Below are positions 1,184 through 25,833 of a stretch of 64,000 bases of DNA, piece after piece. The notes beneath the pieces were generated by a model that worked only from the letters and a program-made list of their open reading frames with translations, did not search any database and had not been told where the DNA came from. Both the position numbers and the translations under genes were made by a program. Within the stretch, counting starts at the first letter, position 1. Every line of letters begins with the position of its first letter. Source of the DNA: an uncultured Dehalococcoidales bacterium. GTDB taxonomy: Bacteria; Chloroflexota; Dehalococcoidia; Dehalococcoidales; BS750m-G39. Location of the stretch: the NCBI GenBank assembly GCA_964396965.1, contig CAYNGD010000006.1, positions 8,771 to 72,770 of the forward strand, read 5' to 3'.

Positions 1184-1188
1184 GGCTA

Positions 1189-2220
1189 TTACCTGTAACT
1201 TTGACTCAGTTTGATTAGACTCTGAAGCTTTTCCAGCGCCCGCCCGCTGTCTATCGTTTCTTCGGCTATCTCGGCGCCTGCCTTGAGGGCGGGCAGCCCG
1301 GAGCTGTTTTTAGTGCGGCTGCCGACGGCGATGCCGGCGGCGGCGTTCATAATCACCGCGTCTCTTCTCGGTCCCCTCTCCCCCTCCAGCACCGCCCGCA
1401 GTATGGCTGCGTTCTCCTGAGGGGTGCCCCCGGCAAGAGTATTTAGTCCGGCCATTCCAAGCCCGAAGTCCTCCGGCGATATTTGGTAGTCGGTAATCTT
1501 ACCGTCATTAAGTTCCCAGACACGTGACAGGCCGGACACCGAGATTTCATCCATCCCATTCAGGCTATAGACGACCAGGGCGTGCCTTGAGCCCAGGCGC
1601 TGGAGCACCTGCGCCATCTTTTCGCCCAGTTCCTGGCTGGCCACGCCCAGAACAATGGAATCGGCCAGCGCCGGGTTGGTCAGCGGGCCGAGGATATTGA
1701 ATACAGTCCTTATGCCCAGCTCGCGGCGGGGGGCGGCGGCGAACTTCATCGCCGGGTGGAAGAGAGGGGCGAACATGAAGCCGATGCCGACACGCTCGAT
1801 GCATTCCCTTACCTGGTTTGCGTCCAGCTCTATTTTCACCCCCAGCGCCTCCAGGACATCGGCGCTGCCGCACCGGCTGGTCATGGCCCGGTTATTGTGC
1901 TTGGCCACCTTTATCCCGGCGCCGGCGGCAACAAAGGCGGCGGCGGTGGAGATGTTAAAGCTTTTGGAGTTATCGCCACCGGTGCCGACGATATCAATCA
2001 CCGGCCCGTCTGTCTCCACGCGGATTGACTTGGCCCGCATGACGCTGGCCAGCCCGGCAATCTCGTCGGCGGTCTCGCCTTTTATTCTCAGGGCGGTAAC
2101 AAAAGCGCCGAACTGGGCGGTGGTTAGCTGGCCGGTGGTCATCTCCTTCATCACCTCAGCCGCCTGCTCCATAGTCAGGGAATGCCCGTCCACCAGCAGG
2201 CTGATGGCTTCTTTAATCAT
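1189..2220 (-). CDS. trpD: Anthranilate phosphoribosyltransferase
   Basis: 343 aa with DIVGTGGD and KHNNRAMTSRCGSADVLEALG motifs. Lies in the trp operon. Confidence 0.92.
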   Translation of the reverse strand: MIKEAISLLVDGHSLTMEQAAEVMKEMTTGQLTTAQFGAFVTALRIKGETADEIAGLASVMRAKSIRVETDGPVIDIVGTGGDNSKSFNISTAAAFVAAGAGIKVAKHNNRAMTSRCGSADVLEALGVKIELDANQVRECIERVGIGFMFAPLFHPAMKFAAAPRRELGIRTVFNILGPLTNPALADSIVLGVASQELGEKMAQVLQRLGSRHALVVYSLNGMDEISVSGLSRVWELNDGKITDYQISPEDFGLGMAGLNTLAGGTPQENAAILRAVLEGERGPRRDAVIMNAAAGIAVGSRTKNSSGLPALKAGAEIAEETIDSGRALEKLQSLIKLSQSYR

Positions 2221-2804
2221 TTTTCTACCTCACCCAGGTTATTTAGTTTTAGGAAGTTCCTCAATATGTCCTTGCCGTTCTGGGTCATAAAGGACTCGGG
2301 GTGGAACTGCACCCCCTCCACCGGGTATTTACGGCGGCGCAGCCCCATGATCGTCCCGTCCTCGGTCCAGGCGGTTATCTCCAGACAGTCCGGCAGGTTT
2401 TCGCGGGCGACCATCAGTGAGTGATAGCGGATGGCGGGGAAGGGATTAGGCAGGCCGTGAAAGACGCCGCTATCGTTATGGTAGATAAGTGAAGACTTGC
2501 CATGCATAATCGCCTTGGCCGGGCCGACGCTGCCCCCGTAGCTGTAGCCGAGGCACTGGTGTCCCAGGCAGACGCCTAGTATAGGCAGCCTCTCCCCGAA
2601 CTGCCTGATGACGTCGTTGGAGATACCGGCGTTTAAGGGGGTGGAGGGGCCGGGTGAGATGACGATGCGCTCCGGCTTCATCCTTTCGATTTCGTCCAGC
2701 GTTATCTTGTTATTGCGGACGACCAGAACCTCTTCCCCCAGCTCGCTCAAATACTGGAAGAGGTTGTAGGTGAAGCTGTCGTAGTTATCAATCAGCAGCA
2801 GCAT
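2217..2804 (-). CDS. trpG: Anthranilate synthase component II (glutamine amidotransferase)
   Basis: 195 aa class-I GATase with PILGVCLGHQ (catalytic Cys) and GVQFHPES. Overlaps trpD and trpE by a few nt. Confidence 0.9.
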   Translation of the reverse strand: MLLLIDNYDSFTYNLFQYLSELGEEVLVVRNNKITLDEIERMKPERIVISPGPSTPLNAGISNDVIRQFGERLPILGVCLGHQCLGYSYGGSVGPAKAIMHGKSSLIYHNDSGVFHGLPNPFPAIRYHSLMVARENLPDCLEITAWTEDGTIMGLRRRKYPVEGVQFHPESFMTQNGKDILRNFLKLNNLGEVEK

Positions 2805-4239
2805 GGCTAATCTCCGTAGCCTCGGCCTGCTCGATGGCTTTTATCAGGGCTCCGGCCTTGTTCATGGTCTCTTCATATTCCCGCTCAGGAACGCTGTCAT
2901 AGACGATGCCGGCGCCGGCCTGGATATGGGCGGTGCCGTTTTGGGTGACGATAGTCCTTATAGTTATGGCGGTGTCCATTCCGCCGGAGAAGCTGAAGTA
3001 GCCAACGCAACCGGCGTAGGGGCCCCTTTTGTCCGGCTCAAGCTCGGCGATGGCCTCCATGGCCCGTATCTTGGGTGCCCCGGAGACGGTTCCAGCGGGG
3101 AAACAGGCGCGCAGGGCATCGAAGGTGGTGAGTTCAGGTCTTAACCTGCCTTCGACATTGGTGACCAGGTGCATGACGTGGGAGTAGCGCTCAACATCCA
3201 TAAGCTCGCTGACCCTGACCGTCCCCGGCACGCTCACCCGCCCGATGTCATTTCTCCCCAGGTCAACCAGCATGATGTGCTCGGCGCGCTCCTTCTCGTC
3301 GGCGCGCAGTTCTTCTTCCAGGCGTTTATCTTCCTCCGGCGTTTTACCCCGAGGCCGTGTCCCGGCCAGGGGGCGGGTGGTCACCGTACCGTTAACCGCC
3401 CTGACCAGGATTTCGGGCGACGAGCCGATAAGCTGGAAGTCCTTGAAGTCCAGGAAGAACATGTAGGGCGAGGGGTTGATGCGTCTTAGGGCTTGGTAGA
3501 TGTCTAGGGGTGAGGCGGTGGTGGAGCGGCTCAGGCGCTGGGAGAGCACAATCTGTATGGCCTCGCCCTCGGTGATATACTGCTTTGCTTTCTTAACATT
3601 GGCCTCGAACTTGGCCCTGGTCAGATTGGACGAGATTTGGGCTGGTCTATCTGATTTCAGTGGTTGGGGATATTTAATGGGCTGCCTGAGTCTGTCGGCC
3701 AGTTCCTCTATCCTCTCTATCGCTTTCTGGTAGGCGCTTTCGGCGGTACCGTCGGGGCGGGCGCAGCTTGCGATTTTAATCTTGTTATTGGCGTGGTCGA
3801 AGATGAGCAGGCTATCAACAAAGATAAAGACCGCTTCCGGCAGCTTCAGCGGGTCGGAGTCCGGCGAAGGGAGTTCCTCAAAGCGCCTTACCGTTTCGTA
3901 GGCAAGGTAGCCGACGGCGCCGCCGCTGAAGTCGGGCAGGCCGCCCAGCGGCGCCAGCCGGTGCTTTTTCATCTCCCCGGCGATGAGCTTTAACGGGTCG
4001 GTCTTATCCCCCTCTCTGGTGCTGAGCACTCTATAAGGCTCGGTGCCGACAAAGCTGTAGCGCGCCGCCTTCCGACTATCCTCCACGCTCTCCAGGAGAA
4101 AACCGTAATCGCCGCGTTTCACCTTTAGTAGGGCCGAGACCGGCGTCTCGCTACCGGCGGCAACCTCCCGATAGACGGGCACTAGGCAGCCCGGCTCTCT
4201 CAGAGCTTTAAATTCTTCCATTGTCGGCTGGTACATCAT
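2788..4239 (-). CDS. trpE: Anthranilate synthase component I
   Basis: 483 aa with chorismate-binding motifs LAGTRPRG, AEHIMLVDLGRND, GAPKIRAME and RGPYAGCVGY. Confidence 0.92.
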   Translation of the reverse strand: MMYQPTMEEFKALREPGCLVPVYREVAAGSETPVSALLKVKRGDYGFLLESVEDSRKAARYSFVGTEPYRVLSTREGDKTDPLKLIAGEMKKHRLAPLGGLPDFSGGAVGYLAYETVRRFEELPSPDSDPLKLPEAVFIFVDSLLIFDHANNKIKIASCARPDGTAESAYQKAIERIEELADRLRQPIKYPQPLKSDRPAQISSNLTRAKFEANVKKAKQYITEGEAIQIVLSQRLSRSTTASPLDIYQALRRINPSPYMFFLDFKDFQLIGSSPEILVRAVNGTVTTRPLAGTRPRGKTPEEDKRLEEELRADEKERAEHIMLVDLGRNDIGRVSVPGTVRVSELMDVERYSHVMHLVTNVEGRLRPELTTFDALRACFPAGTVSGAPKIRAMEAIAELEPDKRGPYAGCVGYFSFSGGMDTAITIRTIVTQNGTAHIQAGAGIVYDSVPEREYEETMNKAGALIKAIEQAEATEISHAAAD

Positions 4240-4572
4240 AAATTCTCCAATAAAAAAACCTCTCGCCTTAGGGGCGAGAGGTTAATCCTTCGCGGTGCCA
4301 CCCTAGTTGATTGCCAAAAAGGCAACCATCTCTCTTCGGGTACAGCCTTGGCGATACCCTGGGCTTGCTAACGGTGCCCTTCCGTCAAAGCCTACTCGGT
4401 CATCCCTTTCGGTTTGCGGCTCCCGAGTCCATTCAGCCCCGGCGCTGGCGCCGGTTTCCACCACAAGGCCCAGAAAAATCTCCGATTTTCCCGGGGACCC
4501 TCATCCGGCTCTCTGCCGCCCCGTTCTGGAGCCTACTAGTCTCGTTCTCAGCCTTTGTGCCATATTCAGTTT
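4240..4572 (-). promoter_or_regulatory. T-box riboswitch leader, tryptophan specifier (UGG)
   Basis: Minus strand shows an AGAGA box, a specifier loop GAA-UGG-A (UGG = 4431..4429), an AGUA box, and the conserved T-box AGGGUGGCACCGCG (4304..4291), which competes with the 5' arm of the terminator. The UGGC bulge fits an NCCA end with discriminator G, as in tRNA-Trp. Confidence 0.85.
4252..4282 (-). terminator. Intrinsic terminator of the T-box leader
   Basis: Minus strand reads CCUCUCGCC-CCUAA-GGCGAGAGG followed by UUUUUUU, about 20 nt before the trpE RBS/ATG. Confidence 0.8.
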
Positions 4573-4721: not shown

Positions 4722-4794
4722 GCCCGAGTGGCGCAATGGCAGCGCAACCGACTTGTAATCGGTAGGTTAGCGGGTTCGACTCCCCTCTCGGGCT
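4722..4794 (+). tRNA. tRNA-Thr (anticodon UGU)
   Basis: Acceptor GCCCGAG/CTCGGGC, D arm GCGC-AATGGCA-GCGC, anticodon arm ACCGA-CTTGTAA-TCGGT, and a TTCGACT T-loop. One imperfect pair in the T stem. No encoded CCA. Confidence 0.85.
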
Positions 4795-4814
4795 GGGATT
4801 TACTGGCGATGTGG

Positions 4815-4899
4815 GGAGGGGTGCCGGAGTGGTTAATCGGAGCAGACTGTAAATCTGCCGCCTGAAATGGCTACGCAGGTTCGAATCCTGCCCCCTCCA
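4815..4899 (+). tRNA. tRNA-Tyr (anticodon GUA), long variable arm
   Basis: Acceptor GGAGGGG/CCCCTCC, anticodon loop CTGTAAA, long variable arm, and T arm GCAGG-TTCGAAT-CCTGC. Confidence 0.9.
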
Positions 4900-4940
4900 C
4901 TGTAGCGTAAAAACTAGAAATATGGTATCTTGTTCATAGT

Positions 4941-5013
4941 GCCCACATAGCTCAGTCGGTAGAGCACCATCTTGGTAAGATGGGGGTCACCAGTTCGAAT
5001 CTGGTTGTGGGCT
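4941..5013 (+). tRNA. tRNA-Thr (anticodon GGU)
   Basis: Acceptor GCCCACA/TGTGGGC, D arm AGCTCAGTCGGTAGAGC, anticodon loop CTTGGTAAG, and T arm CCAGTTCGAATCTGG. Confidence 0.9.
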
Positions 5014-5031: not shown

Positions 5032-6237
5032 ATGGCAAAAAAGAAATTCGAGAGGACCAAGCCCCATTGCAATGTGGGCACTATCGGTCATGTTGACCAC
5101 GGCAAGACGACCCTGACCTCGGCGATTACCTTGGTGCTGTCCAAGGCGGGCCTCGCTGGATACCGCGAGTTTGGCTCCATTGATAATGCGCCCGAGGAAA
5201 AGGCGAGGGGACTGACCATCGCTATTGCCCATATTGAGTATGAGACAGAGAAACGCCATTACGCGCATATCGATTGCCCGGGGCACGCCGACTACATTAA
5301 GAACATGATAACCGGCGCTGCCCAGATGGACGGCGCCATCCTGGTGGTGGCCGCCGATGACGGGGTGATGCCCCAGACCAGGGAGCACCTCCTGCTGGCG
5401 CACCAGGTGGAGGTGCCTTATATAGTGGTCGCCCTGAATAAGGTTGACCTGGTGGATGACCCCGAGCTGCTGGAGGTGACCGAGCTGGAGCTGAGGGAGG
5501 AGCTGTTGCCCAAATACGGCTTCCCCGGCAGCGAGGTCCCCATCATCAGAGTGAGTGCTCTCAAGGTTCTGGAGTGCGGCTGCGGCAAGCGGGACTGCCA
5601 GTGGTGCGGCGCCATCTGGAAATTGATGGATGCCGTTGATAGCTATATCCCGACCCCGGTGCGGCCTAAAGACCAGCCTTTCCTGATGTCGGTAGAGGAC
5701 GTCTTCAGCATCAAGGGGCGGGGTACCGTGCCCACCGGGAGGGTGGAGCGGGGGGTGATTAAGGCCGGGGACGAGCTTGAGATAGTCGGCCTGCACCACG
5801 AGCCCCACAAGACGGTGGCTACCAGCCTGGAGATGTTCCACAAGACCCTGGACTATGCCGAGCCGGGGGACGCTGTGGGCATACTGCTGCGTGGTGTTGA
5901 CCGGGACGAGATAGAGCGGGGCCAGGTTTTGGCCGCCCCCGGCACTATCAAGCCCCATACCTACGCCGAGGCCCAGGTATATGTTTTGAGCAAGGAGGAG
6001 GGAGGCCGGCATACCCCGTTCTTCAACGGTTACAAGCCCCAGTTTTATATCAGGACTACCGACGTTACCGGGACTATCGAGTTGCCGGAAGGGGTGGAGA
6101 TGGTCATGCCCGGCGATAACATCACTATGAAGATAAAGCTTATCTATCCGGTGGCTATGGAGCAGGGCCTGCGCTTTGCTATTAGGGAAGGGGGTAGAAC
6201 GGTAGGTGCCGGTACCATTGCCAGCATCATCGAGTAA
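5032..6237 (+). CDS. tuf: Elongation factor Tu
   Basis: 401 aa with [22 protein letters not shown] and SAL motifs. Full three-domain length. Confidence 0.97.
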
Positions 6238-6239
6238 GA

Positions 6240-6407
6240 ATGGCCAAAAAGGGTGAAGCCAGGAATATTATCTATCTCGCCTGCACCGAGTGCAGGGAGA
6301 GGACCTATACCACCAGCAAAAACCGGCACAATGACTCCCAGCGGTTGGAGCTCAAGAAGTATTGCCCCCGCTGTCGCACCCATACCCTCCACCGGGAGGC
6401 AAAATAG
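6240..6407 (+). CDS. rpmG: 50S ribosomal protein L33 (zinc-ribbon C+ form)
   Basis: Missed by the ORF track because it is under 60 aa. Translation is [55 protein letters not shown], with CxxC...CxxC. Canonical position between tuf and secE. Confidence 0.9.
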
Positions 6408-6441
6408 TGGGTGGCAATTAAGGAGGCAGTGAGGCTTTTTC

Positions 6442-6651
6442 ATGGCCCATCGCGCTACTACCAAGCGTTCCAGGTTCAGTCTTTTTGGCGAAATCATCGC
6501 CGAGATGAAGAAGGTGGTCTGGCTCACCAGGCGAGAGGCGGCCTATTTGACCTTTATGGTCTTGGTTGTGTCCATTATCGTGGGCCTGATTCTGGGAGGC
6601 TTTGACTACGGCTTTACCAACCTGGTCAACAAGTTCTTTCTGGGCAAATAA
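6442..6651 (+). CDS. secE: Preprotein translocase subunit SecE
   Basis: 69 aa with a basic N-terminus, KKVVWLTRRE, and a single TM helix. Lies directly upstream of nusG. Confidence 0.85.
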   Translation: MAHRATTKRSRFSLFGEIIAEMKKVVWLTRREAAYLTFMVLVVSIIVGLILGGFDYGFTNLVNKFFLGK

Positions 6652-6678
6652 GCGCCTACCCCTGGCTTTCCGGGCAGT

Positions 6679-7233
6679 TTGGTTCAAATGAGGTTATCGG
6701 TGGCAGGCAATCAGAAAAGTTGGTTCGTCGTCCATACCTACTCCGGGTATGAAGAACGAGTTAAGAAGAACCTTGAGCAGCGCATCAAGTATATGGACAG
6801 CGGGGAGGAAATCTCCCAGGTAATCATACCCACCGAGGTGGAGATTGAGGTCAAGGAAGGGCAGCGGCGCAACGTGAACAAAAAGATACTGCCCGGCTAT
6901 ATCCTGGTTCAGATGGAGCTGAGCGACCAGAGCTGGAATATAGTGCGCAACACCCCGGGTGTTACCGGCTTTGTCGGCAGCGGCAATAAGCCCACCCCCC
7001 TTGAGGAGGGGGAGGTCAACAAAATCTTAAAGCAGATGGAGGCGGAGGCGCCCCGGGTCAGGGTCGGTTTCCGCAAGGGGCAGAGCGTGCGGGTGACCAG
7101 CGGCCCCTTCATTGACTTTGTCGGCGTGGTGGATGAAATCAGCCTGGACAAGGGCAAGGTGAAGGTGCTCCTTTCCCTCTTCGGGCGGGAGACGCCGGTT
7201 GAGCTCGACTTTTTGCAGGTGGAGAAGCTTTAG
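6679..7233 (+). CDS. nusG: Transcription termination/antitermination factor NusG
   Basis: Shows [11 protein letters not shown] (NGN domain) and a C-terminal KOW ([11 protein letters not shown]). Start is uncertain: TTG 6679, ATG 6688, or GTG 6700. The last has a GAGG 6 nt upstream. Confidence 0.92.
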
Positions 7234-7655
7234 TGGCCAAGAAGATTGCCGCGGTAATTAAACTGCAGATTCAGGCGGGGAAGGCCACCCCGGCGCCGCC
7301 GGTAGGCCCGGCCTTGGGACAGCACGGGCTTAATATCATGGCCTTCTGCAAGGAGTACAACGAGCGCACTGCTGGCCAGGAAGGCTCTATCATCCCGGTG
7401 GAGATAACCGTATTCGAGGACCGCTCCTTTACCTTCATCACCAAGACGCCGCCGGCTACCGATCTGCTCAAGAAAGCGTCCGGCCTGGAGAAGGGTTCGG
7501 TCAGTCCCGGCCACGAAAAGGCGGGCAGGATAACCCGGGCCCAGCTCAGGGAGATAGCCCAGCTTAAATCTAAAGATTTAAACGCCAACAGCATCGAGGG
7601 GGCGGAGCGAATCATCGAGGGCACCGCCTGCAGCATGGGTATTGAGGTGGAATAA
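7233..7655 (+). CDS. rplK: 50S ribosomal protein L11
   Basis: 140 aa reading [37 protein letters not shown] start overlaps the nusG stop. Confidence 0.95.
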
Positions 7656-7657
7656 AT

Positions 7658-8371
7658 TTGGCCAAGCACGGTAAGAAATATAACGAGGCACTAGCCCTGG
7701 TGGACCGGGCCAGGCTCTATGAGCCCGCCGAGGCCATCGAGATGGCCAAGAAGGCGGCCTATACCAAGTTCGATGAGACGGTTGAGCTTCACCTGCGGAT
7801 GGGGATTGACCCCCGCGACGCCACCCAGCAGGTGCGCGGGGTAGCTTTATTGCCCCACGGGCTGGGCAAGAAGGTGCGGGTGCTGGTCTTTGCCCAGGGT
7901 GAGGCGGCCAGGAATGCCGAGAGCGCCGGCGCCGACTACGTCGGCGGTGACGACCTGGCTAAAAAGATTGAGGGGGGCTGGCTGGACTTTGACGTCACCA
8001 TCGCCACCCCGGATATGATGGGCAAGGTGGGCCGGCTGGGTAAGATCCTGGGGAGGCGGGGGCTGATGCCCAACCCCAAGTCGGGGACGGTGGTGGCCGG
8101 CGAAGACCTGCCCCGGGCCATCAACGAGGCCCGCCAGGGGCGGGTGGAGTTCAAGCTGGACCGGACGGCTATCATTCATCTCCCGCTGGGCAAGGCCAGT
8201 TTTGAGACGGATAAGCTGCTGGCCAACCTCACCGCCGTTATCGAGGCGGTGACCCGGGCCAAGCCCGCCGGGGCCAAGGGGCAGTATATCAAGACGGCCA
8301 CTTTAACCACCACCATGGGGCCGGGCTTTAAGCTCGACCTGAGACCAACCCTGTCGCTAACCTCCAGTTAG
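7658..8371 (+). CDS. rplA: 50S ribosomal protein L1
   Basis: 237 aa. TTG start with a GAGGTGGA RBS. Typical L1 sequence ([25 protein letters not shown]). Confidence 0.95.
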
Positions 8372-8401
8372 TAAAATCTAGACTGCAAAGGGGACGTTGA
8401 T

Positions 8402-9553
8402 ATGGAAGATGTTGCTATTATTGGTGCCGGACAGAGCGCCTTCAGCCGTAGCTGCGGTGAGTCTATCCGGGAGCTAGCTTTCGAGGCCTACAAGGAGGCG
8501 ATGGCAGGGCTGGATATCACCGGTGACAATATCGACGCCTCGGTTATCTGCTCGGCGCCGGAATATGATAAACAGCGCTCGCCTTCGGGCCTGATTTCGG
8601 AGTACCTGGAGCTGACCCCCAAGCCCACCTTCTATATTGAGACGGTCTGCTCCTCGAGCAGCACGGGCTTAAGGGTGGCCTGGTCGCTGATAAAGGCCGG
8701 GCTGCACCAGGTGGTAGCGGTAGTCGGCTTCCAGAAGATGTCCGAGCTCTCCTCCCGTGACGCCGCCGAGAGGATGGGGCGGGGGGGAGACATAATCTGG
8801 GAGTCGCCCTTCGGAATCACCATGCCCGCCGGCTACGCCATGTACGCCCGGGCCCATATGGAAAAGTACGGCACCACTGAGGAACAGATGGCTAAAATCC
8901 GGGTCAAGAACTCCCACTACGGGGCGACCAACCCCAAGGCCAACTACCGCAAGGAGCTGAGCCTGGAGGATATTTTAAATTCGGAGATGATAACCAGCCC
9001 CTTAAAGAAGTTTGACTGTTGCGCCAACGCCGACGGCTCCTCCTGCGTCATCCTGGCCCGGGGCGACGTGGCTAAGAGCATCACCAAGAAGCCCATCTGG
9101 GTTATCGGCCTGGGGGCGGCCACCGATACCATGAGCATGGCCGGAAGGCAGTCGCTCACCGGGCTGCGCTGTGCTCAGGAGGCGGCCAGGCAGGCCTATA
9201 AGATGGCCGGGGTCAAGCCCCGGGACATTGACGTGGCCGAGGTCCACGACTGCTTTACCATCTCCGAGATTCTGGCCTACGAAGACCTTGGCTTCGCCAA
9301 GCCCGGTGAGGGGGCGGGGCTGATTGAGGACAAAGAGACCTACGCCGACGGCAAGATACCGGTAAACGTTGATGGCGGCCTGCTCTCCAAGGGGCACCCA
9401 ATCGGTGCTACTGGCGGCTCGCAGATTCGGACTATCGTCCGCCAGCTGCGTGGGGCGGCCACCGAGGCCCAGGTGAAGAACGCCGAGATAGGTCTGGTGC
9501 ACAATATCGGCGGCGTCGGGCAGTACGGCAACGTCACCATTTTGAGGAGGTAG
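8402..9553 (+). CDS. SCP2/archaeal-type thiolase (acetyl-CoA C-acyltransferase-like)
   Basis: 383 aa with nucleophile Cys in ETVCSSSS, plus VHDCF, GHPIGATG and HNIGG motifs typical of the DUF35-associated thiolase family. Confidence 0.85.
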   Translation: MEDVAIIGAGQSAFSRSCGESIRELAFEAYKEAMAGLDITGDNIDASVICSAPEYDKQRSPSGLISEYLELTPKPTFYIETVCSSSSTGLRVAWSLIKAGLHQVVAVVGFQKMSELSSRDAAERMGRGGDIIWESPFGITMPAGYAMYARAHMEKYGTTEEQMAKIRVKNSHYGATNPKANYRKELSLEDILNSEMITSPLKKFDCCANADGSSCVILARGDVAKSITKKPIWVIGLGAATDTMSMAGRQSLTGLRCAQEAARQAYKMAGVKPRDIDVAEVHDCFTISEILAYEDLGFAKPGEGAGLIEDKETYADGKIPVNVDGGLLSKGHPIGATGGSQIRTIVRQLRGAATEAQVKNAEIGLVHNIGGVGQYGNVTILRR

Positions 9554-9556
9554 TTA

Positions 9557-9970
9557 ATGGGCTTTGAGAATTTCGGCACGGTCAGCTTTACTTCAGAGGC
9601 CAAGGTAACCGATTTCATCACCCAGCTGGAGGCGGGCAAAGTGATGGCCACCCGCTGCCGCCAGTGCGGGGGCAGCTACTTTCCCCCCAAGGCGGACTGC
9701 CCCAAGTGCCTCTCCAGTGATGTTGAGTGGTTCGAGGTTAAGAGCACGGGTAAGCTCCTGAGCTATACCGTGGTCAACTACGGCCCCACCGGTTTCGAGA
9801 ACGACGCCCCCTATATCCTGGCTCTGGTGCGGTTTTACGAGGGCATCCAGATTCTGGCCCGTCTTAGCCGGGATATCGCCGAGAAGGATATTAAGGTCGG
9901 TATGAGTCTTAAGGTCAGTCCGGTAAGGCTGGCCGATAACAGGATTGCCTACCAATTTAGCAGAGCCTAA
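9557..9970 (+). CDS. DUF35 protein (Zn-ribbon plus OB-fold)
   Basis: 137 aa with CRQCGGSYFPPKADCPKC (CxxC-x10-CxxC) followed by an OB-fold-like C-terminus. Only 3 nt downstream of the thiolase. Confidence 0.8.
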   Translation: MGFENFGTVSFTSEAKVTDFITQLEAGKVMATRCRQCGGSYFPPKADCPKCLSSDVEWFEVKSTGKLLSYTVVNYGPTGFENDAPYILALVRFYEGIQILARLSRDIAEKDIKVGMSLKVSPVRLADNRIAYQFSRA

Positions 9971-9984
9971 CAAGGAGGACAATC

Positions 9985-11391
9985 ATGGTTGGTATTACCT
10001 CATACGGCGCTTATGTGCCCCTCTACCGGCTGAGCCGGGAGGCGGTAGCCAGGGGCGCCCGCGGCGAGAAGGCGATATGTAACTTCGATGAGGACAGCAT
10101 CACAATGGCGGCGGCGGCGGCTATCGACTGCCTGACCGGCCTTGACCGGGAGAAGATTGACGGGCTCTATTTGGCCACCACCACCTCCCCCTACAGGGAG
10201 AAGTCGGGGGCGACTATCGTGGCCATGGCCGCCGACCTCAGAGAGGAAATCCTTACCGCCGATTTCGCCCATTCCCTGCGGGCGGGGACATCGGCATTCA
10301 GGTCAGCTATTGATGCGGTCAAGGCAGGCTCGGCCAAGAGGGTGCTGGTGACGGCGGCTGACTGCCGTCTGGGGCTTCCCGGCTCGGTCTATGAGCAGAA
10401 CTTCGGTGACGGTGCCGGTGCCCTCCTTATCGGCGACACTAATGTTATCGCCAACATTGAAGATAGTTACTCGGTCTATAACGAGATAACCGACGTCTGG
10501 CGATCTGCCGGCGACACCTTTATCCGTTCCTGGGAGGACCGCTTTACCACCACCCACGGCTACGCCACGGCGGTGAGCGAAGCGGTATCAGGGCTATTAA
10601 AGAAGACCGGCCTGAAGCCGGCCGATTTCGCCAAGGTTGTTCTCTATACCCCGGACGCCCGCCGCAGCGCCGACGTGGCTAAAAGACTGGGCTTTGACCC
10701 CAAGACCCAGCTCCAGGACCCCTTATTTAATTTTCTGGGCAACACCGGCAGCGCCCTCCCCCTGATGCTGCTGGCGGCGGCGCTGGAGGAGGCCAAGGCG
10801 GGCGACAGGATACTGCTGGCCAGCTACGGTAACGGCAGCGATGCCTTTGTCCTCCAGGTGACCGAACAGATAGCCAAAATCAAGCCCCGGCGCGGAATGA
10901 AGGGGCATCTGGCCTCGAAGAAGGTAATGGATGATTACCGCCAGTACCTCATCTGGCGGGGAATCCTGCCGATAGAGCCGCGCAAGGAGACGGTGGCCTT
11001 TATCTCCGCCCCGGCCCTGTGGCGGGAGCGAGACGCCAACCTGCGTCTGCGCGGGGTCAAGTGCAAGGTCTGCGGCACCATCCAGTTCCCGCCGCAGCGG
11101 GTCTGCATCAAGTGCCACAGCAAAGACCAGTTCGAGCCCTACCGCCTGTCGGACAAGAAGGCCAAGATATTCACCTTCTCCATGGACTATATCACCTATC
11201 CGGTGCTGGAGCGGCCGGTGGTCAACGTCACCGTTGACTTCGAGGGTGGGGGCAGGGCGCTACTGTATATGACCGACCGCGAGGCGGAGCAGGTCAAGTG
11301 CGGCCTGCCGGTGGAGATGAGCTTCAGGAAGCTGATGGTCAGGGACGGCATCCACAACTATTACTGGAAGGCGATGCCCTTAAGGACATAA
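9985..11391 (+). CDS. Archaeal-type HMG-CoA-synthase-like protein fused to a C-terminal DUF35 domain. Catalytic residues appear substituted.
   Basis: 468 aa. The N-terminal ~345 aa align by eye to archaeal HMGCS (VGITSYGAYVP, DVWR, GNTGSA, LASYGNGSDAF). The C-terminus carries CKVCGTIQFPPQRVCIKC plus an OB fold. The expected Glu/Cys/His positions read T/L/Y. Confidence 0.8.
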   Translation: MVGITSYGAYVPLYRLSREAVARGARGEKAICNFDEDSITMAAAAAIDCLTGLDREKIDGLYLATTTSPYREKSGATIVAMAADLREEILTADFAHSLRAGTSAFRSAIDAVKAGSAKRVLVTAADCRLGLPGSVYEQNFGDGAGALLIGDTNVIANIEDSYSVYNEITDVWRSAGDTFIRSWEDRFTTTHGYATAVSEAVSGLLKKTGLKPADFAKVVLYTPDARRSADVAKRLGFDPKTQLQDPLFNFLGNTGSALPLMLLAAALEEAKAGDRILLASYGNGSDAFVLQVTEQIAKIKPRRGMKGHLASKKVMDDYRQYLIWRGILPIEPRKETVAFISAPALWRERDANLRLRGVKCKVCGTIQFPPQRVCIKCHSKDQFEPYRLSDKKAKIFTFSMDYITYPVLERPVVNVTVDFEGGGRALLYMTDREAEQVKCGLPVEMSFRKLMVRDGIHNYYWKAMPLRT

Positions 11392-11419
11392 GCGACAGAA
11401 TAAAGGGGGAGGTAACCCT

Positions 11420-12598
11420 ATGGTAGGCATTAAAGATAGAGTGGCCATAGTGGGTATGGGTTGTACCCAGTTCGGCGAGCTCTGGGATAAAAGTCATAAA
11501 GATCTGCTGGTTGAGGCCTGCTACGAGGCCTTCGAGGACGCTGGCATCGAGCCCAAGGACATTCAAGCTGCCTGGTACGGCAGCCGCGAGACCGGCTTTA
11601 CCGGCACCCAGCTGGCCAATGCCATAAAGCTGGACTATATACCGGTCAGCCGGGTGGAGAACTTCTGCGCCGGCGGCACCGATACCTTCCGTAATGCCTG
11701 CTATGCCGTGGCCAGCGGCGTCTGTGAGATCGCCCTGGCAGTGGGGGTGGAGAAGTGCAAGGACCACTACGGCGGCTTCTGCATGGACATTCTCGACCCC
11801 TTTGACCGCAGCATGGTGGAGTGGGAACTGCCCCCGGCCAGTCAGTTCGCCCTGCTGGCCACCAGGTATATGCACCACTACGGCTGGAAGTACGAGGACT
11901 TCAAGCGGATACTCTCCATGATTGACGTCAAGAACCATCACAACGGCACCATGTCCCCCAAGGCCCAGTTCCGGCGGGAGATAACCATAGAGCAGGCCAT
12001 GAACGCCCCCATGATTTCCTACCCGCTGGGACTGTATGATGCCTGCGGGGTGAGCGATGGTTCGGCGGCGGCCATTATCACCACCCCTGAGATTGCCAAA
12101 AAGATGAGAAAAGACTACGTCCTGGTAAAGGCTTTAGCCCTGACCAACGGTGCCGGCCAGGCGGTAATGCAGCCGGAGTACAATTTTATCTCCATCCCGG
12201 AGACGGCAACCGCTGCCGAGCACGCCTACAGAGAGGCGGGTATAACCAAACCCCGCCATGAGATAGACGTGGCCATAGTCCATGACTGTTTTTCCATTAC
12301 CGAGCTGATGACCATGGAGGACCTGCAGTTCAGCCCCAGGGGTAAGGCCCCGGAGGATGTTGAGGCTGGCACCTTTACCCTGGAGGGAGAGCTGCCGGTT
12401 AATACTGACGGGGGGCTGAAATGCTTTGGCCATCCCCTTTCGGCCAGCGGGCTGAGGATGATTTATGAAGTCTACAAGCAGCTGCAGGGTAAGGCCGGCC
12501 CCAGGCAGCTGAAGAAAGCGGATATGGGTCTAACCCATAATGTGGGAGGTATCTGCGGCTTCTTTAACTGCACCGTGGCTTTGTTCGGTAGACCATAA
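11420..12598 (+). CDS. SCP2/archaeal-type thiolase (second copy)
   Basis: 392 aa with a Cys nucleophile in ENFCAGGT, plus VHDCF, GHPLSASG and HNVGG. Confidence 0.85.
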   Translation: MVGIKDRVAIVGMGCTQFGELWDKSHKDLLVEACYEAFEDAGIEPKDIQAAWYGSRETGFTGTQLANAIKLDYIPVSRVENFCAGGTDTFRNACYAVASGVCEIALAVGVEKCKDHYGGFCMDILDPFDRSMVEWELPPASQFALLATRYMHHYGWKYEDFKRILSMIDVKNHHNGTMSPKAQFRREITIEQAMNAPMISYPLGLYDACGVSDGSAAAIITTPEIAKKMRKDYVLVKALALTNGAGQAVMQPEYNFISIPETATAAEHAYREAGITKPRHEIDVAIVHDCFSITELMTMEDLQFSPRGKAPEDVEAGTFTLEGELPVNTDGGLKCFGHPLSASGLRMIYEVYKQLQGKAGPRQLKKADMGLTHNVGGICGFFNCTVALFGRP

Positions 12599-12650
12599 TC
12601 TGCTATAATAATACAAAATATATAAAATATTCCGGTGACAGCGGGTGCCG

Positions 12651-12774
12651 TCAGGGCTTAATAGACTGCCTGCCGAGGAGATAGAAGGCTTGAAGGTTAA
12701 GTCCTTGTGCGGCAGGCGCAGGGACTTGCTTTTTTAGGCGGATATCAAGTAGTGTTAATCGGGGGTTAAGGGAG
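12651..12774 (+). promoter_or_regulatory. Putative rplJ (L10) leader / attenuator
   Basis: Hairpin AAGTCCTTG...CAGGGACTT (12699..12727) followed by TTTTTT (12730..12735). Upstream CTGCCTGCCG can pair alternatively with CGGCAGGCG. Sits immediately before the rplJ RBS. Confidence 0.45.
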
Positions 12775-13299
12775 ATGTCCAGGGAAAAGAAAACGGAGAT
12801 TATCGAAAACCTGCAAGAGCTGTTTACTAGGTGCAGCGTGGCCATTCTGGCTGACTACCGGGGCCAATCGGCTAACCAGATGACCGAGCTGCGCCGCCGG
12901 CTCGGGGAGGCAGGGATTGACTTTAAGGTGGTCAAGAACACGCTGGCCAGCTTCGCCGCCCAGAGGTCGGGGAGGGAGGAGCTTTCCGGTTTCTTCGAGG
13001 GGCCGGTGGCGATTGCCTTCGGCTACGGCGATATCAACGGGCCGGCCAAGGCCTTGGCCGGCTATATCGAAGAAACGAAGGCCGGCATGACCATCAAGGG
13101 GGGCTTTTTAGCCGACCGGCTGCTTACCAAAGAGGAGGTAACCACCCTTTCTACTCTGCCATCGAAAGAGGTGTTACTAGCCAGGGTTGTGGGTGGGGTG
13201 CAGGGCCCCATCTCGGCCCTGGTCAGCCAGCTGGCTGACCCGATGACGGGGCTTATAGCTGGACTACAGGCGAGAATTCAACAACTGGAGGGAAGATAA
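12775..13299 (+). CDS. rplJ: 50S ribosomal protein L10
   Basis: 174 aa with typical L10 sequence ([19 protein letters not shown]). Followed by rplL. Confidence 0.93.
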
Positions 13300-13300
13300 G

Positions 13301-13915
13301 ATGCCACAAGAAGAAGCCAAAGGCAAAAAAACGGCCAAGGCCGAAGCCAAGGCTGAGGTAGAGGAACCCAAGGCTGAGGCTAAGGTAGAGGAAGCTAAGC
13401 CTGAGGTAGAGAAACCCGAAACCAAGCCTGAGGTAAAAGAACCTGAAGCTAAAGCTGAAGCAAAGGAACCCGCCGCCAAGGCTGAACCTGAAGCTAAGCC
13501 TGAGGCCAAGGAGGCCAAAGCCAAGGCCGGGGCGAAGAGCTCGGCTGCTGTTGAGCAGATAATGGCCAGCATCAAGAAGATGACGGTGCTTGAGCTATCG
13601 GAGCTGGTCAAGGCGCTGCAGGAAGAGTTCGGCGTCAGCGCTCCGGTAGCGGTAGCGGCACCGGCGGCAGCCGCCGCCGAGGCGGCCCCAGCCGCTGAGG
13701 AGAAGACGGAGTTCAGCGTTATTCTCAAGGAAGTCGGGGCTAACAAGATCAGCGTCATCAGAGCGGTGAGGGAGGTGACCACCCTCGGCCTCAAGGAGGC
13801 CAAGGACTTCGTGGAGAGCGCCCCTCAGACGGTAAAAGAAGGGATTAACCAGGAAGAGGCCAATAACATAAAACAGAAGCTGGAAGCGGCCGGGGCTAGC
13901 GTAGAGATTAAATAA
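13301..13915 (+). CDS. rplL: 50S ribosomal protein L7/L12 with an ~80 aa K/E/A/P-rich N-terminal extension
   Basis: The C-terminal ~125 aa are canonical L12 ([19 protein letters not shown] ... [14 protein letters not shown] ... AGASVEIK). ATG 13301 has a GGAGGGA RBS 7 nt upstream. The internal Met88 (13562) has no SD. Confidence 0.9.
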
Positions 13916-13933
13916 AGCTAAGGGGTTCTAGAC

Positions 13934-14191
13934 ATGCCTCTAAGCGATAAATTCATACTGATGGTCGTGGGTGGTATCTTCATCGTCCTGGGTATATTCC
14001 TGATTCTCTGGGGCAAGGGTGAGGAGAGGGGGTATTACCGTTCTCTGGCCGGCCGCCCCGACGCCAGGGAGTTTCTAGAACACTGGCCGCAGCGCCCCAG
14101 GGTGGGGGCGGGGAAGATAGGCGGCTGGATATCTCTGTCGGTCGGCCTGGTCCTGGCGGCGGTGGGCGGTGCTCTCTGGCTCTGGGGCTAA
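13934..14191 (+). CDS. Small membrane protein (2 predicted TM helices), unknown function
   Basis: 85 aa with two hydrophobic stretches. AAGGGG RBS upstream. Confidence 0.5.
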   Translation: MPLSDKFILMVVGGIFIVLGIFLILWGKGEERGYYRSLAGRPDAREFLEHWPQRPRVGAGKIGGWISLSVGLVLAAVGGALWLWG

Positions 14192-14351
14192 AAAACCTGA
14201 GAGTCTGCCCTGGCGGTGTAGCTTGTGCCCGGCGTCCTCACATTGCGAGGCCCTTTGAACTCCCTTTCCCCGTGGACTGGCCGCCCTTTCTCTAGCCCCA
14301 TAGTGAGGGGCTATCCTCTAGCTTGATTTTTGTTTAAGAGCACTTCAGATA

Positions 14352-15584
14352 GTGAGCATCTCTAAGAGCCAGACTAACGGAGCCAATTCCCGCTGGTATG
14401 CGCTTATCCTGGCAGCGCTGACCTTAACCTTTACCGTCGCCATGCAGCAGATCTGCATGTCGGTGCTTTTCAAGGAGATATCGGAGGAGCTTGGCCTGAG
14501 CCTGGTGCAGATAGGCCTTGTCTGGGGTACACCCGCCTTTTCTGGTTTTCTTATCGTCATTATCGGCGGGCTGCTCTCAGACCGCTACGGGGCCAGACGG
14601 GTTATTGGTGTTGCCTGTATTGTGGCGGGGATAGCCGGTGCCCTGAGGGGTACCGCCGGCGGCTTTGCCAGCCTGTTATTGTTCACTTTCCTGATGGGTC
14701 TGGCGATTTGGGTTATACCACCTAGTGCCTTCAAGAACAACGCCGCCTGGTTTTCAGGAAGGCGGCTGGTAATTGCCAACGGCGTGCTCTCAACCGGTAT
14801 GGGATTTGGTTTTACTTTGGGGTCCTTGGTTAGTGCCACCATACTATCGCCGTTTCTGGGCGGCTGGCAGAATGTGCTGTTCCTCTACGGTGGTATTGCC
14901 GTCGTGTTTGGTTTTCTCTGGCTTTTCACGGCCAAGGAGTTTACCGGGTCGGCGGCTCCGGTAAGTGGAGTGCCGCTGCGCCAGTCGATAGCGCATGTAT
15001 TTCCGGTCAAGTCTCTCTGGTTTATCGGTCTGACCCTGCTGGGCTATTCCGGTTGTATTCAGGCAGTTATCGGCTACATGCCTACCTATCTCCGTAATAT
15101 AGGCTGGACGGTGGCCAGCGCTGACGGCACGCTGGCTGCTTTTACTGCGGTCAGTACCCTGGGCGCTATTCCGCTGACCATGTTATCCGATAGAATCGGT
15201 TTGAAAAAGGCGCTGATTTTCCCGATACTTGTGGTCACCATTCTGTGTGTGGCCTTGCTGCCGGTAGCTGGTAACACCATGGTATGGGTGCTGATGATAT
15301 TGATGGGCGTATCCCGTGACGGGCTTATGGCCGTCTGCCTCACCATGAGCACCGAGACGGAGGGCATCGGCAGCGTCTATGCTGGAGCCGCTGTGGGGCT
15401 TACGCAGACTATTAATTATGTCGGCCAGCTTTTTGCCCCTCCACTGGGTAACAGCCTGGCCAGCCCGGCTAATCCCGCTTCGCCCTATCCCTTCTTCCTC
15501 TGGGCGGGCTTCGGGCTGCTGGGCTTGATTTCTTTCGTTTTCGTCAGGGAAACGGGGTGGAAGCGGAAAGAGCTAAGGCGATAA
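14352..15584 (+). CDS. MFS transporter
   Basis: 410 aa with about 12 hydrophobic segments and an MFS-like GGLLSDRYGARR loop motif. Start codon is uncertain (GTG, no clear RBS). Confidence 0.8.
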   Translation: MSISKSQTNGANSRWYALILAALTLTFTVAMQQICMSVLFKEISEELGLSLVQIGLVWGTPAFSGFLIVIIGGLLSDRYGARRVIGVACIVAGIAGALRGTAGGFASLLLFTFLMGLAIWVIPPSAFKNNAAWFSGRRLVIANGVLSTGMGFGFTLGSLVSATILSPFLGGWQNVLFLYGGIAVVFGFLWLFTAKEFTGSAAPVSGVPLRQSIAHVFPVKSLWFIGLTLLGYSGCIQAVIGYMPTYLRNIGWTVASADGTLAAFTAVSTLGAIPLTMLSDRIGLKKALIFPILVVTILCVALLPVAGNTMVWVLMILMGVSRDGLMAVCLTMSTETEGIGSVYAGAAVGLTQTINYVGQLFAPPLGNSLASPANPASPYPFFLWAGFGLLGLISFVFVRETGWKRKELRR

Positions 15585-17818: not shown

Positions 17819-19027
17819 ATGGCTGGGCCTTTAGACGGGGTCAGGGTGGTGGAGATAACCATGTTTCAGCAGGGGCCGGTGGCCGGTATGAGGTTGGGTG
17901 ACCTGGGTGCCAAGGTGATTAAGGTTGAGGCTAAGACCGGAGACCCAGGTAGAGGGATGATGAGGATGGTCGGCGTCGATGCCGGCCTAAAGGGGCGAAA
18001 CTATTACTTTGAGAGCAATAACCGCAACAAGAGGAGCATCGTCCTTGACCTTAAGACGAGAAAGGGGATGAAGGTATTCTTAAAGCTGATTGACCGGGCT
18101 GATGTCTTTCTGACCAACATGAGCATCGAGGCACCGCAGAGGATGGGCATCAGCCCCGAGGTGTTGCTCAAGAGAAATCCACGGTTGATCTATGCCCATG
18201 CCTCCGGATGGGGCCGTAAAGGCCCGGATGCCAGCGAGCTTTCCTTCGACTATACCGGCATTGCCCGGTCGGGGACGATGATGATGTGTGGGGAGAGGGG
18301 TGATCCGCCGGGAATCCTGATACCGGGTATGGGTGATGAGCAGGGTGGGCTTATCTGCGCCTGGGCGGTGACCGCCGCCCTCTATGCACGGGAGAAGACA
18401 GGCCGGGGGCAGCTGGTCGATACCTCTTTGATGGGCAGCCTGATTTCCCTGCACGGGGTCAGCTTCTCGGCGCCTGGGGTTCTGGGACAGGAGTTCCCCA
18501 GACTACTCAGGTCGGAAGCGGGCAACCCGATTTATAACCACTATGGGTGTAAGGACGACAAATGGATTGTCTTGGCTCACCTCCAGCCCGACCGGTACTG
18601 GCCCAATGTCTGCCGGGCGATGGGGCTGGAGGAGCTGGAGCATGACCCCAAATTTAGCACGATAGAAGCCAGGCACGATAATGCCAGGGAGCTGGTGGCT
18701 ATCCTGGACGAGAGGTTCGCCACCAGGACCAGGGATGAATGGATGGAGATTTTTAAGAGGGAGGATGTAATCTATACCCCGGTCCAGTCAGCCAGCGAGG
18801 TCTTTGAGGACGGACAGGCGCTGGCCAATGACTATATCATCCCGGTTGACCATCCGGTCTGGGGCAGGATAAAGATGCTGGGCTTCCCCTGGACATTCCA
18901 CGAGACACCAGCCTCGGTGCAGAGGGAGGCCCCCGAGCTCGGCCAGCACACCGAGGAGATTCTGCTGGAGCTGGGCTATAGCTGGGAGGATATCGCTGCT
19001 TTAAAGAATGAAGAGGCGATACCTTAA
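17819..19027 (+). CDS. Class III (CaiB/BaiF family) CoA-transferase
   Basis: 402 aa with LDGVRVVEITMFQQGPVAGMRLGDLGAKVIKVE at the N-terminus and family-typical length. Confidence 0.88.
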   Translation: MAGPLDGVRVVEITMFQQGPVAGMRLGDLGAKVIKVEAKTGDPGRGMMRMVGVDAGLKGRNYYFESNNRNKRSIVLDLKTRKGMKVFLKLIDRADVFLTNMSIEAPQRMGISPEVLLKRNPRLIYAHASGWGRKGPDASELSFDYTGIARSGTMMMCGERGDPPGILIPGMGDEQGGLICAWAVTAALYAREKTGRGQLVDTSLMGSLISLHGVSFSAPGVLGQEFPRLLRSEAGNPIYNHYGCKDDKWIVLAHLQPDRYWPNVCRAMGLEELEHDPKFSTIEARHDNARELVAILDERFATRTRDEWMEIFKREDVIYTPVQSASEVFEDGQALANDYIIPVDHPVWGRIKMLGFPWTFHETPASVQREAPELGQHTEEILLELGYSWEDIAALKNEEAIP

Positions 19028-19047
19028 AGGCTGCTAAAAGGATGAGT

Positions 19048-19076
19048 TTGACAATAGCGCTTTTATATGTTAAGAT
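19048..19076 (+). promoter_or_regulatory. Sigma-70-type promoter of leader L2
   Basis: TTGACA (19048..19053), a 17 nt spacer, then TAAGAT (19071..19076). Confidence 0.5.
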
Positions 19077-19082
19077 TAGGTT

Positions 19083-19295
19083 TGCTTAAATATGGATGAG
19101 AATAAGATGTTAAATATCGCCTTCCAGGACTATTATTACGCCTATTATTTTACACCGAAAGGTGTGCTTGGGAGGTTTGCGGCCTGAAGCAGGGTAGTTA
19201 AGAGCTAAAAATAAACAGGAAAGCTAAAAGGAACCCTCCCAAGCGGGAGGGTTCTCCGTTTTTAGGAATATAACCAAAGGAGGACTAAAAATCAA
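19083..19295 (+). promoter_or_regulatory. Structured 5' leader L2, paralogue of L1
   Basis: Terminator AACCCTCCC-AAGC-GGGAGGGTT plus CTCCGTTTTT (19232..19263). Upstream GCTTGGGAGG (19166..19175) is an exact complement of CCTCCCAAGC in the terminator 5' arm. Confidence 0.5.
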
Positions 19296-20237: not shown

Positions 20238-20279
20238 ACTCAGGCAAGGTGTTATAATACAGCGAAGAGGAGTAACGTT

Positions 20280-21437: not shown

Positions 21438-21458
21438 TAGTTTATAAGGAGAACGGTT

Positions 21459-23638: not shown

Positions 23639-23653
23639 TATAGGAAGAAAATC

Positions 23654-24439: not shown

Positions 24440-24440
24440 T

Positions 24441-25832: not shown

Positions 25833-25833
25833 T

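Follow-up and report, generated by a model that had tools for sequence, protein, structure and literature searches.

An HMG-CoA-synthase-like/DUF35 fusion protein with replaced catalytic residues, most likely a non-catalytic thiolase subunit, encoded in the ribosomal-protein region of an uncultured Dehalococcoidales bacterium

We analyzed 64,000 nt of DNA from an uncultured Dehalococcoidales bacterium (contig CAYNGD010000006.1, positions 8,771 to 72,770 of the forward strand; this whole stretch is called the window in the following) and found that the gene at 9985-11391 encodes a fusion of a 3-hydroxy-3-methylglutaryl-coenzyme A (HMG-CoA) synthase-like domain, in which three catalytic residues are replaced, with a DUF35 domain. 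Most likely, the fusion protein is itself inactive and serves as a non-catalytic partner in a complex with the thiolase encoded by the following gene, thl2; this complex would serve the thiolysis of 3-oxoacyl-CoA and not the synthesis of HMG-CoA. The gene and its two domains are:

9985..11391, + strand: fusion gene (HMG-CoA-synthase-like + DUF35, 468 aa), from the list of open reading frames (ORFs), phmmer against the PDB, AlphaFold2 and fold search
9985..10989, + strand: HMGS-like domain with thiolase fold (aa 1-335), catalytically disabled, from MAFFT alignment, column counts in 126 representatives and the ratio of non-synonymous to synonymous substitution rates (dN/dS)
11017..11382, + strand: DUF35 domain (aa 345-466), a rubredoxin-like zinc ribbon followed by an OB fold, from Pfam, invariant cysteines and dN/dS

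The ORF is intact, and more than 100 homologues have the identical length of 468 aa. When all PDB chains were searched with phmmer, aa 2-328 aligned with aa 4-347 of the HMG-CoA synthase (HMGCS) of Methanothermococcus thermolithotrophicus (6esq_I, E = 7e-38), and aa 345-466 aligned with aa 5-128 of chain 6esq_E, the DUF35 subunit in the same complex (E = 5e-16). Pfam places zf-ChsH2 at aa 353-380 (1e-8) and OB_ChsH2_C at aa 390-448 (7e-7), and the zinc-ribbon cysteines Cys360, Cys363, Cys374 and Cys377 (nt 11062-11115) are invariant across 84 aligned relatives. An earlier note on this DNA, in which the N-terminal domain had been aligned by eye with archaeal HMGCS and a complete zinc-ribbon/OB DUF35 domain had been recognized behind it, is borne out on both points: an HMGCS-like and a DUF35 domain, each of them complete, together fill almost the whole protein. 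The AlphaFold2 model, computed from an 84-sequence alignment, shows an intact fold and is confident throughout (pLDDT 95.1, pTM 0.94). Among solved structures, Foldseek returned PhlA (5mg5_A), archaeal HMGCS (6esq_I) and MucA (9vbt_B) as top matches, with PhlA in first place; the tightest superposition is obtained with 6esq_I (root-mean-square deviation ∼2.0 Å, TM score 0.89), compared to TM scores of 0.85-0.87 for PhlA and MucA (all TM scores normalized to the fusion protein). In sequence, the phmmer scores are 134 bits for archaeal HMGCS, 129-130 bits for PhlA, 61 bits for MucA and 45-49 bits for bacterial MvaS.

The motifs that had been read as signs of an inactive enzyme (LATTTSPY, FAHSLRAGT and VLYTPDA) are all present in the protein. 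Aligned with 6esq_I by MAFFT, the general base Glu82 is replaced by Thr66 (nt 10180-10182), the nucleophile Cys114 by Leu98 (nt 10276-10278) and His238 by Tyr221 (nt 10645-10647). The alignment, which had been set beforehand as the refuting test, thus puts no Glu, Cys or His at these three positions; the claim that the catalytic residues are replaced holds for these three but not for the fourth residue of the E-C-H-N tetrad, the Asn, which is retained. To place these replacements in the family, we used a HMMER search of 1.84 billion representatives, which gave 697 clusters (50% identity) at E ≤ 1e-30. Each of the best 150 of the 697 clusters has the fused architecture, mostly at full length, with 34-64% identity to the protein of the window. 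In the 126 full-length cluster representatives, neither Cys nor Glu occurs a single time in its respective column (0/126 each): the Cys column is occupied by Leu in 93 and the Glu column by Thr in 109 of the 126 sequences. Residues in the His column vary widely (Tyr 41, Pro 21, Ser 18, Ala 17, His 2), and the Asn column holds Asn in 45 and Asp in 22 cases. Glu and Cys are likewise absent from 12 additional fused homologues encoded in metagenome-assembled genomes (MAGs), on bacterial plasmids and on a haloarchaeal plasmid (from Dehalococcoidia, SAR202, a Spirochaetaceae MAG, Desulfotomaculum copahuensis, Thermodesulfobacteriota, Variovorax, Rhodococcus, Azoarcus, Sphingomonas and Natronorubrum). 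PhlA has Cys83 and Gly115 at the aligned Glu and Cys sites.

The HMGS-like domain is nevertheless maintained. Compared with four orthologous loci, its dN/dS is 0.11-0.13, close to the values for rplA (0.08-0.15) and rplJ (0.12-0.23), and the DUF35 domain gives ∼0.07-0.08 in two comparisons and 0.17 against locus L014; all of these ratios are approximate, as synonymous sites are near saturation except for the closest pair. Judged from these sequence data, the HMGS-like domain is a folded, selected and most likely non-catalytic protein. Conservation of the replacements across the family rules out sequencing error or chance as their source, and together with the dN/dS values it also led us to drop the reading as a pseudogene. 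A functionless relic, decaying after the loss of a mevalonate function, would have to be reconciled with a dN/dS of ∼0.1, an intact ORF of constant length at identities from 92% down to 34%, fused relatives across many phyla and the haloarchaea, and a confident fold prediction; we regard this explanation as refuted by the selection and conservation data and give it practically no weight.

The target gene is accompanied by three further genes of related function on the same strand:

11420..12598, + strand: partner thiolase thl2 (392 aa), archaeal-ACAT/SCP2 type (PRK06157, 549 bits; cut-off 403)
8402..9553, + strand: second thiolase thl1 (383 aa), archaeal-ACAT/SCP2 type (PRK06064, 440 bits; cut-off 420)
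9557..9970, + strand: free-standing DUF35 protein (137 aa) with zinc ribbon CRQC...CPKC (OB_ChsH2_C, 1e-15; zf-ChsH2, 9e-12)

Both thiolases had been described as apparently active, and in fact both keep the nucleophile and the histidine motifs: thl2 has Cys83, His288 in HDCF and GHP at 337-339, and thl1 has Cys83, HDCF282 and GHP331. The two share 32% identity, and in the PDB both match 7yvy_A and 6esq_A best (3e-72 for thl1 against 7yvy_A). The thiolase of the 6ESQ complex scores 196-212 bits against thl1 and thl2. The free DUF35 protein is presumably the partner of thl1, and the pair would form a second complex of the BbsAB or archaeal-ACAT type. All four genes are tightly spaced, with gaps of 30 nt (rplA-thl1), 3 nt (thl1-DUF35), 14 nt (DUF35-fusion) and 28 nt (fusion-thl2) that contain Shine-Dalgarno-like sequences; the last gap holds the ribosome-binding site GGGGGAGG.

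To see which of these genes belong together, we compared related loci; a scan of genome collections with peptide patterns specific to close relatives yielded 13 loci, and the wider context comes from contig look-ups and plasmid records. In every locus examined (genomes, metagenomes and five plasmid records) a thiolase adjoins the fusion gene, and in all bacterial loci examined it lies downstream. These fusion-adjacent thiolases all contain HDxF, and every full-length copy contains GHP (the nucleophile Cys was scored in thl1 and thl2 of the window only); the copy in L009, cut by the contig end, shows HDCF only. The conserved unit is therefore the fusion together with its immediately adjoining thiolase. 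By comparison, the pair of thl1 and the free DUF35 gene, like the placement between rplA and rplJ, is restricted to close relatives with 72-85% identity (L001-L003, L014, L015). The earlier proposal of a non-catalytic partner of the flanking thiolases thus agrees with the residue losses and with published homologues, but conserved adjacency covers the downstream thl2 only.

In cultured organisms the fusion/thiolase pair is embedded in gene sets for beta-oxidation. In Variovorax it is preceded by genes for a short-chain dehydrogenase/reductase (SDR) and a MaoC hydratase and followed by an acyl-CoA dehydrogenase, a family III CoA-transferase and a TTT-type solute-binding protein; SDR and MaoC also precede it in Sphingomonas. 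On the Rhodococcus plasmid pDK3 the pair is followed by another thiolase, an SDR and a crotonase, and in Azoarcus KH32C by an acetyl-CoA hydrolase/transferase, with MaoC, SDR and electron transfer flavoprotein (ETF) genes close by. In Natronorubrum the order is thiolase, fusion, 3-hydroxyacyl-CoA dehydrogenase and enoyl-CoA hydratase, with a separate thiolase and OB-fold pair 3 kb away. Together with the published activity described below, these neighbours support a degradative 3-oxoacyl-CoA thiolase complex.

Two further kinds of neighbourhood were seen among the relatives. Outside the clade of the window, two thiolases per fusion occur on the Natronorubrum aibiense plasmid (L026, 2932-10153), on Rhodococcus pDK3 (L023, 7995-11813) and in L008 (3056-6987); the haloarchaeal record L026 contains the same four components as the window, a thiolase + OB-fold pair and a thiolase + fusion pair, so that two thiolases may work with one scaffold. 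In two Dehalococcoidia MAGs (L017/L018, 1-12616) a homologous pair, 62% identical to the target, lies beside three genes for UbiD-family (de)carboxylases, with a three-subunit molybdenum hydroxylase and a flavin oxidoreductase as further neighbours, a possible sign of aromatic-acid metabolism; W31_65, one of the two MAGs, has a second fused homologue (L005).

An HMGS-fold subunit without catalytic Cys and Glu is known from PhlACB of Pseudomonas, in which PhlA is non-catalytic and needed only for assembly, PhlC alone is catalytic and the DUF35 protein PhlB bridges the PhlA and PhlC dimers; activity requires co-expression of all three subunits (PMC6392133). Liao et al. (Nat Commun 2026; PMC12960953) added MucABC to this type, reported that the archaeal complex no longer forms HMG-CoA once the E-C-H-N tetrad is mutated, and mined 1,030 bacterial HMGS/ACAT/DUF35 loci, of which 1,001 are without secondary-metabolism neighbours and form a 'minimal' class. 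One of these 1,001, from Pseudomonas fluorescens, was characterized in the same study: its HMGS-DUF35 fusion protein lacks the tetrad, and its ACAT retains Cys, HDxF and GHx. The complex cleaves acetoacetyl-CoA, for which the histidine of HDxF is required, but produces no acetoacetyl-CoA and no HMG-CoA (PMC12960953). Our target has in common with this PfACAT/HMGS-DUF35 complex the fused protein, the tetrad-poor HMGS domain, an adjacent archaeal-type ACAT with Cys/HDxF/GHx and the lack of polyketide synthase (PKS) or non-ribosomal peptide synthetase (NRPS) neighbours, and the only activity measured there, thiolysis, is the one that we propose here. Its own features are the retained Asn, the order of fusion before thiolase, the presence of thl1 and the free DUF35 gene directly upstream, and the location of the whole set inside rplKA-rplJL of a Dehalococcoidales-like genome. 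Thus the kind is already published (the fused type with a dead HMGS domain was first described in January 2026) and the target is a further case; its locus is peculiar in being inserted into a ribosomal-protein region and in having both the thiolase and the DUF35 domain in duplicate. The interpretation given in the earlier note is supported, though it is no longer new.

The other known systems differ more. PhlA (5M3K/5MG5) and MucA (9VBO/9VBT) resemble the target in having an HMGS fold without Glu and Cys, and they are required for assembly with a thiolase-like subunit and a DUF35 protein, but they are separate from their DUF35 protein and their genes lie in antibiotic biosynthetic clusters; the thiolase subunits of PhlACB and MucABC no longer have the HDxF that thl1 and thl2 keep, and the acceptors of their acetyl groups are phloroglucinol or tetramic-acid compounds. 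The archaeal thiolase/HMGCS/DUF35 complex (6ESQ) is the best sequence match to both domains, and its thiolase, like thl1 and thl2, keeps Cys/HDxF/GHx. Its HMGCS, however, is active (Glu82, Cys114, His238, Asn270) and draws the thiolase step onward to HMG-CoA for isoprenoids; such a pull is impossible in the target because three of the four tetrad residues are replaced. In the benzoylsuccinyl-CoA thiolase BbsAB (7PXP), ChsH2-Ltp2 and Shy-Sal, a DUF35 zinc-ribbon/OB protein is bound to an SCP2-type thiolase-fold enzyme of a degradative CoA-ester pathway. These are the closest analogues of the pair of thl1 and free DUF35 protein and of the proposed degradative direction, but they have no HMGS-like subunit and act on aromatic or steroid CoA esters, and Ltp2 and Sal are aldolases, not thiolases.

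By analogy with these complexes and, for complex formation, also from gene adjacency, we infer physical complex formation, a role at the CoA site, the reaction direction and the substrate, as well as the 'scaffold' role of the fusion protein. The HMGS-like domain would dimerize, and the dimer would be held against that of the thiolase by the fused DUF35 domain acting as a clamp, on the model of the archaeal thiolase/HMGCS/DUF35 complex and of PhlACB/MucABC. Chemistry would take place solely at Cys83, His288 and His338 of the thiolase, which would be expected to cleave a 3-oxoacyl-CoA by CoA-dependent thiolysis (or to run the reverse Claisen reaction) as part of a route resembling beta-oxidation. 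The dead domain probably stabilizes the thiolase and helps to form a shared CoA-binding chamber at the subunit interface.

Several observations weigh against this explanation. The Asn270 of the tetrad is kept as Asn253 (nt 10741-10743; LGNTGS compared to LGNTYS in the reference), and the polar residues Thr66, Arg99, Glu72, Asp126 and Arg128 near the former active site are almost invariant, so that the domain might still bind a ligand or have acquired another activity. The ribosomal-protein operon setting in the window gives no hint of a pathway, and the beta-oxidation context is not universal, as the pair stands amid unrelated housekeeping genes in many MAGs. Also, the likeness to the P. fluorescens protein is judged from published architecture and motifs.

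The first two of these points lead to the alternative that survives best, in which the HMGS-like domain has been neo-functionalized and uses its newly conserved residues to bind a ligand or to catalyze another reaction (for example decarboxylation, retro-aldol cleavage or acyl-CoA sensing). The Cys-less thiolase folds of KSQ/CLF and the aldolases Ltp2 and Sal are precedents, and, as the paper on Sal shows, a thiolase fold can be put to a new use; the strong purifying selection that acts on the domain, the prevalence of Thr and Leu in the former Glu and Cys columns, the retention of Asn253 and the conservation of Arg99, Glu72, Asp126, Arg128 and Trp172-Arg173 to at least 90% would all fit. However, the variable His column and an Asn that is found in fewer than half of the representatives are unlike a conserved catalytic set, and Leu, which stands in place of the nucleophile, has an inert side chain. 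Active archaeal HMGCS and PhlA share most of the conserved residues, which therefore probably reflect the fold and the interface, and the P. fluorescens complex showed thiolase-dependent activity only (PMC12960953). We thus consider a new function of this domain unlikely.

It is far less probable that the cluster encodes a Friedel-Crafts-type C-acyltransferase of secondary metabolism that, like PhlACB and MucABC, transfers acetyl groups to a small-molecule acceptor. PhlA nearly equals archaeal HMGCS in score (130 compared to 134 bits) and is the top fold match, and the three-component composition is the same. The acyltransferase type, however, is marked by the loss of HDxF, which is kept in both thl1 and thl2 as HDCF; moreover, PhlC (99-105 bits) and MucB (79 bits) match thl2 weakly compared to archaeal-type ACATs (196-204 bits), and the genes nearby encode ribosomal proteins, a major facilitator superfamily (MFS) transporter and a ComM-like protein. 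As the thiolases keep HDxF and PKS/NRPS genes are absent from the vicinity, the set of the window does not fit this subtype.

Slightly less credible still is a working HMG-CoA synthase with alternative catalytic residues, which would provide an archaeal-type entry into the mevalonate pathway with two thiolases. The gene order does resemble the archaeal thiolase/HMGCS/DUF35 cluster, and the public annotation agrees: relatives in Dehalococcoidia and other uncultured anaerobes are labelled 'hydroxymethylglutaryl-CoA synthase' by NCBI and JGI, names that arise because the NCBIfam model PRK04262 passes its cut-off (254 bits for the target, just above 244). The curated profiles give a divided picture. 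Neither PF01154 nor PF08540, two of the HMG-CoA synthase profiles put forward for checking in the earlier note, matches the target at E ≤ 0.01, where the only Pfam matches are ACP_syn_III_C, ACP_syn_III, zf-ChsH2 and OB_ChsH2_C; the third, TIGR00748, stays far under its cut-off (190 compared to 353 bits), as does TIGR01835 (82 compared to 360 bits). Cys, Glu and His are replaced in the target and Cys and Glu are absent in all relatives, the archaeal tetrad mutant is dead, and the tetrad-less fused homologue of P. fluorescens yields no HMG-CoA (PMC12960953), which agrees with the original statement that the protein is not an enzyme of the mevalonate pathway. A literature search on HMGCS and the mevalonate pathway in Dehalococcoidia returned nothing relevant.

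As mentioned above, the target differs from the P. fluorescens complex in its surroundings. Upstream on the + strand we find tuf, secE, nusG, rplK and rplA, followed by the four metabolic genes, which occupy 8372-12613. Their boundaries are:

7658..8371, + strand: rplA (ribosomal protein L1), upstream boundary of the four-gene insert, from the ORF list and comparison with relatives
12614..12740, + strand: L10 leader RNA, downstream boundary of the insert, followed by rplJ from 12775 and then rplL (Rfam RF00557, 57.8 bits; gathering threshold 44; E = 2e-7)

A terminator scan of 6200-14400 gave a single strong terminator-like hairpin on the + strand, at 12698-12728 inside the L10 leader, and no terminator in the 30-nt gap between rplA and thl1. 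As no strong terminator precedes the L10 leader, the four genes are most simply read, from the sequence, as an extension of the rplK-rplA transcription unit ahead of an intact leader. Among bacterial gene neighbourhoods the rplKA-rplJL region ranks with the most conserved, and a literature search for metabolic insertions between rplA and rplJ found no description of one. The insertion is an unusual genome organization, although on present evidence it brings no new mechanism.

In addition to the complex with thl2 favoured above, we considered that in the Dehalococcoidales-like clade the fusion protein may nucleate one mixed assembly, which would recruit thl2 through the fused and thl1 through the free DUF35 domain and, if co-transcribed with rplK-rplA, would follow ribosome synthesis in its level. 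The conserved former pocket (Thr66, Leu98, Arg99, Asn253) might then still bind CoA or an acyl moiety and pass it between the thiolase sites. The occurrence of two thiolases beside the fusion in Rhodococcus, a Dehalococcoidia MAG from Lake Baikal and the haloarchaeon is compatible with such an assembly, which we nonetheless regard as speculative and rather improbable. We also looked for a triple fusion with a thiolase (a Rosetta-stone protein) in three long relatives, P0185 (911 aa), P0192 (722 aa) and P0164 (723 aa), in which long C-terminal additions follow either the fusion or the HMGS-like domain; the additions are not thiolase.

Some features of the remaining window were noted in passing. 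The L7/L12 protein encoded by rplL (13301-13915) has an N-terminal extension of ∼83 aa, rich in Lys, Glu, Ala and Pro, before the Pfam dimerization domain (aa 85-128); the extension is conserved but variable in length, as the versions of relatives have 233 and 242 aa. Three tRNA genes (4722-5013, + strand) lie immediately 5' of tuf, and a T-box leader (4267-4558, - strand, 97.7 bits) lies upstream of a run of minus-strand genes (413-4239) that resemble, by eye, anthranilate synthase and later genes of the tryptophan pathway. Further downstream, 17819-27123 (+ strand) encodes a family III CoA-transferase, a metallo-beta-lactamase-fold protein, two HGD-D subunits, two BcrAD/BadFG-type ATPases, an FAD-linked oxidase and a CCG/Fe-S protein, a composition resembling an ATP-dependent benzoyl-CoA reductase or a 2-hydroxyacyl-CoA dehydratase system; in L014, CoA-transferase and HGD-D genes come after the same neighbourhood, and the locus stops within the second HGD-D gene. 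We did not adopt a functional link between the target cluster and this cluster 5 kb downstream because an MFS transporter gene and a ComM-like gene on the opposite strand stand between them. Among the close relatives, L001 (JAUWGI010000004.1) is labelled Deltaproteobacteria, but with the window, and with MAGs that carry the label Dehalococcoidales, it shares 94.5% EF-Tu identity and full synteny, so that its label or bin is probably wrong.

Fused relatives were found in Chloroflexota, Thermodesulfobacteriota, Bacillota, Pseudomonadota, Actinomycetota and haloarchaea, and the recently described thiolase complexes with a dead HMGS domain are thereby extended to Chloroflexota, sulfate reducers and haloarchaea. 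Their link to beta-oxidation gene sets suggests a degradative role and not that of an 'evolutionary intermediate'. If the mixed assembly existed, the Dehalococcoidales-like clade would possess a growth-rate-coupled core enzyme of acetyl-CoA/3-oxoacyl-CoA metabolism instead of a peripheral catabolic one. The practical value of our results lies in correcting the annotation of a large family: 'HMG-CoA synthase', as widely annotated, is most likely wrong for it and thiolase accessory subunit is the better name, so that inferring a mevalonate pathway from the presence of such genes is unsafe.

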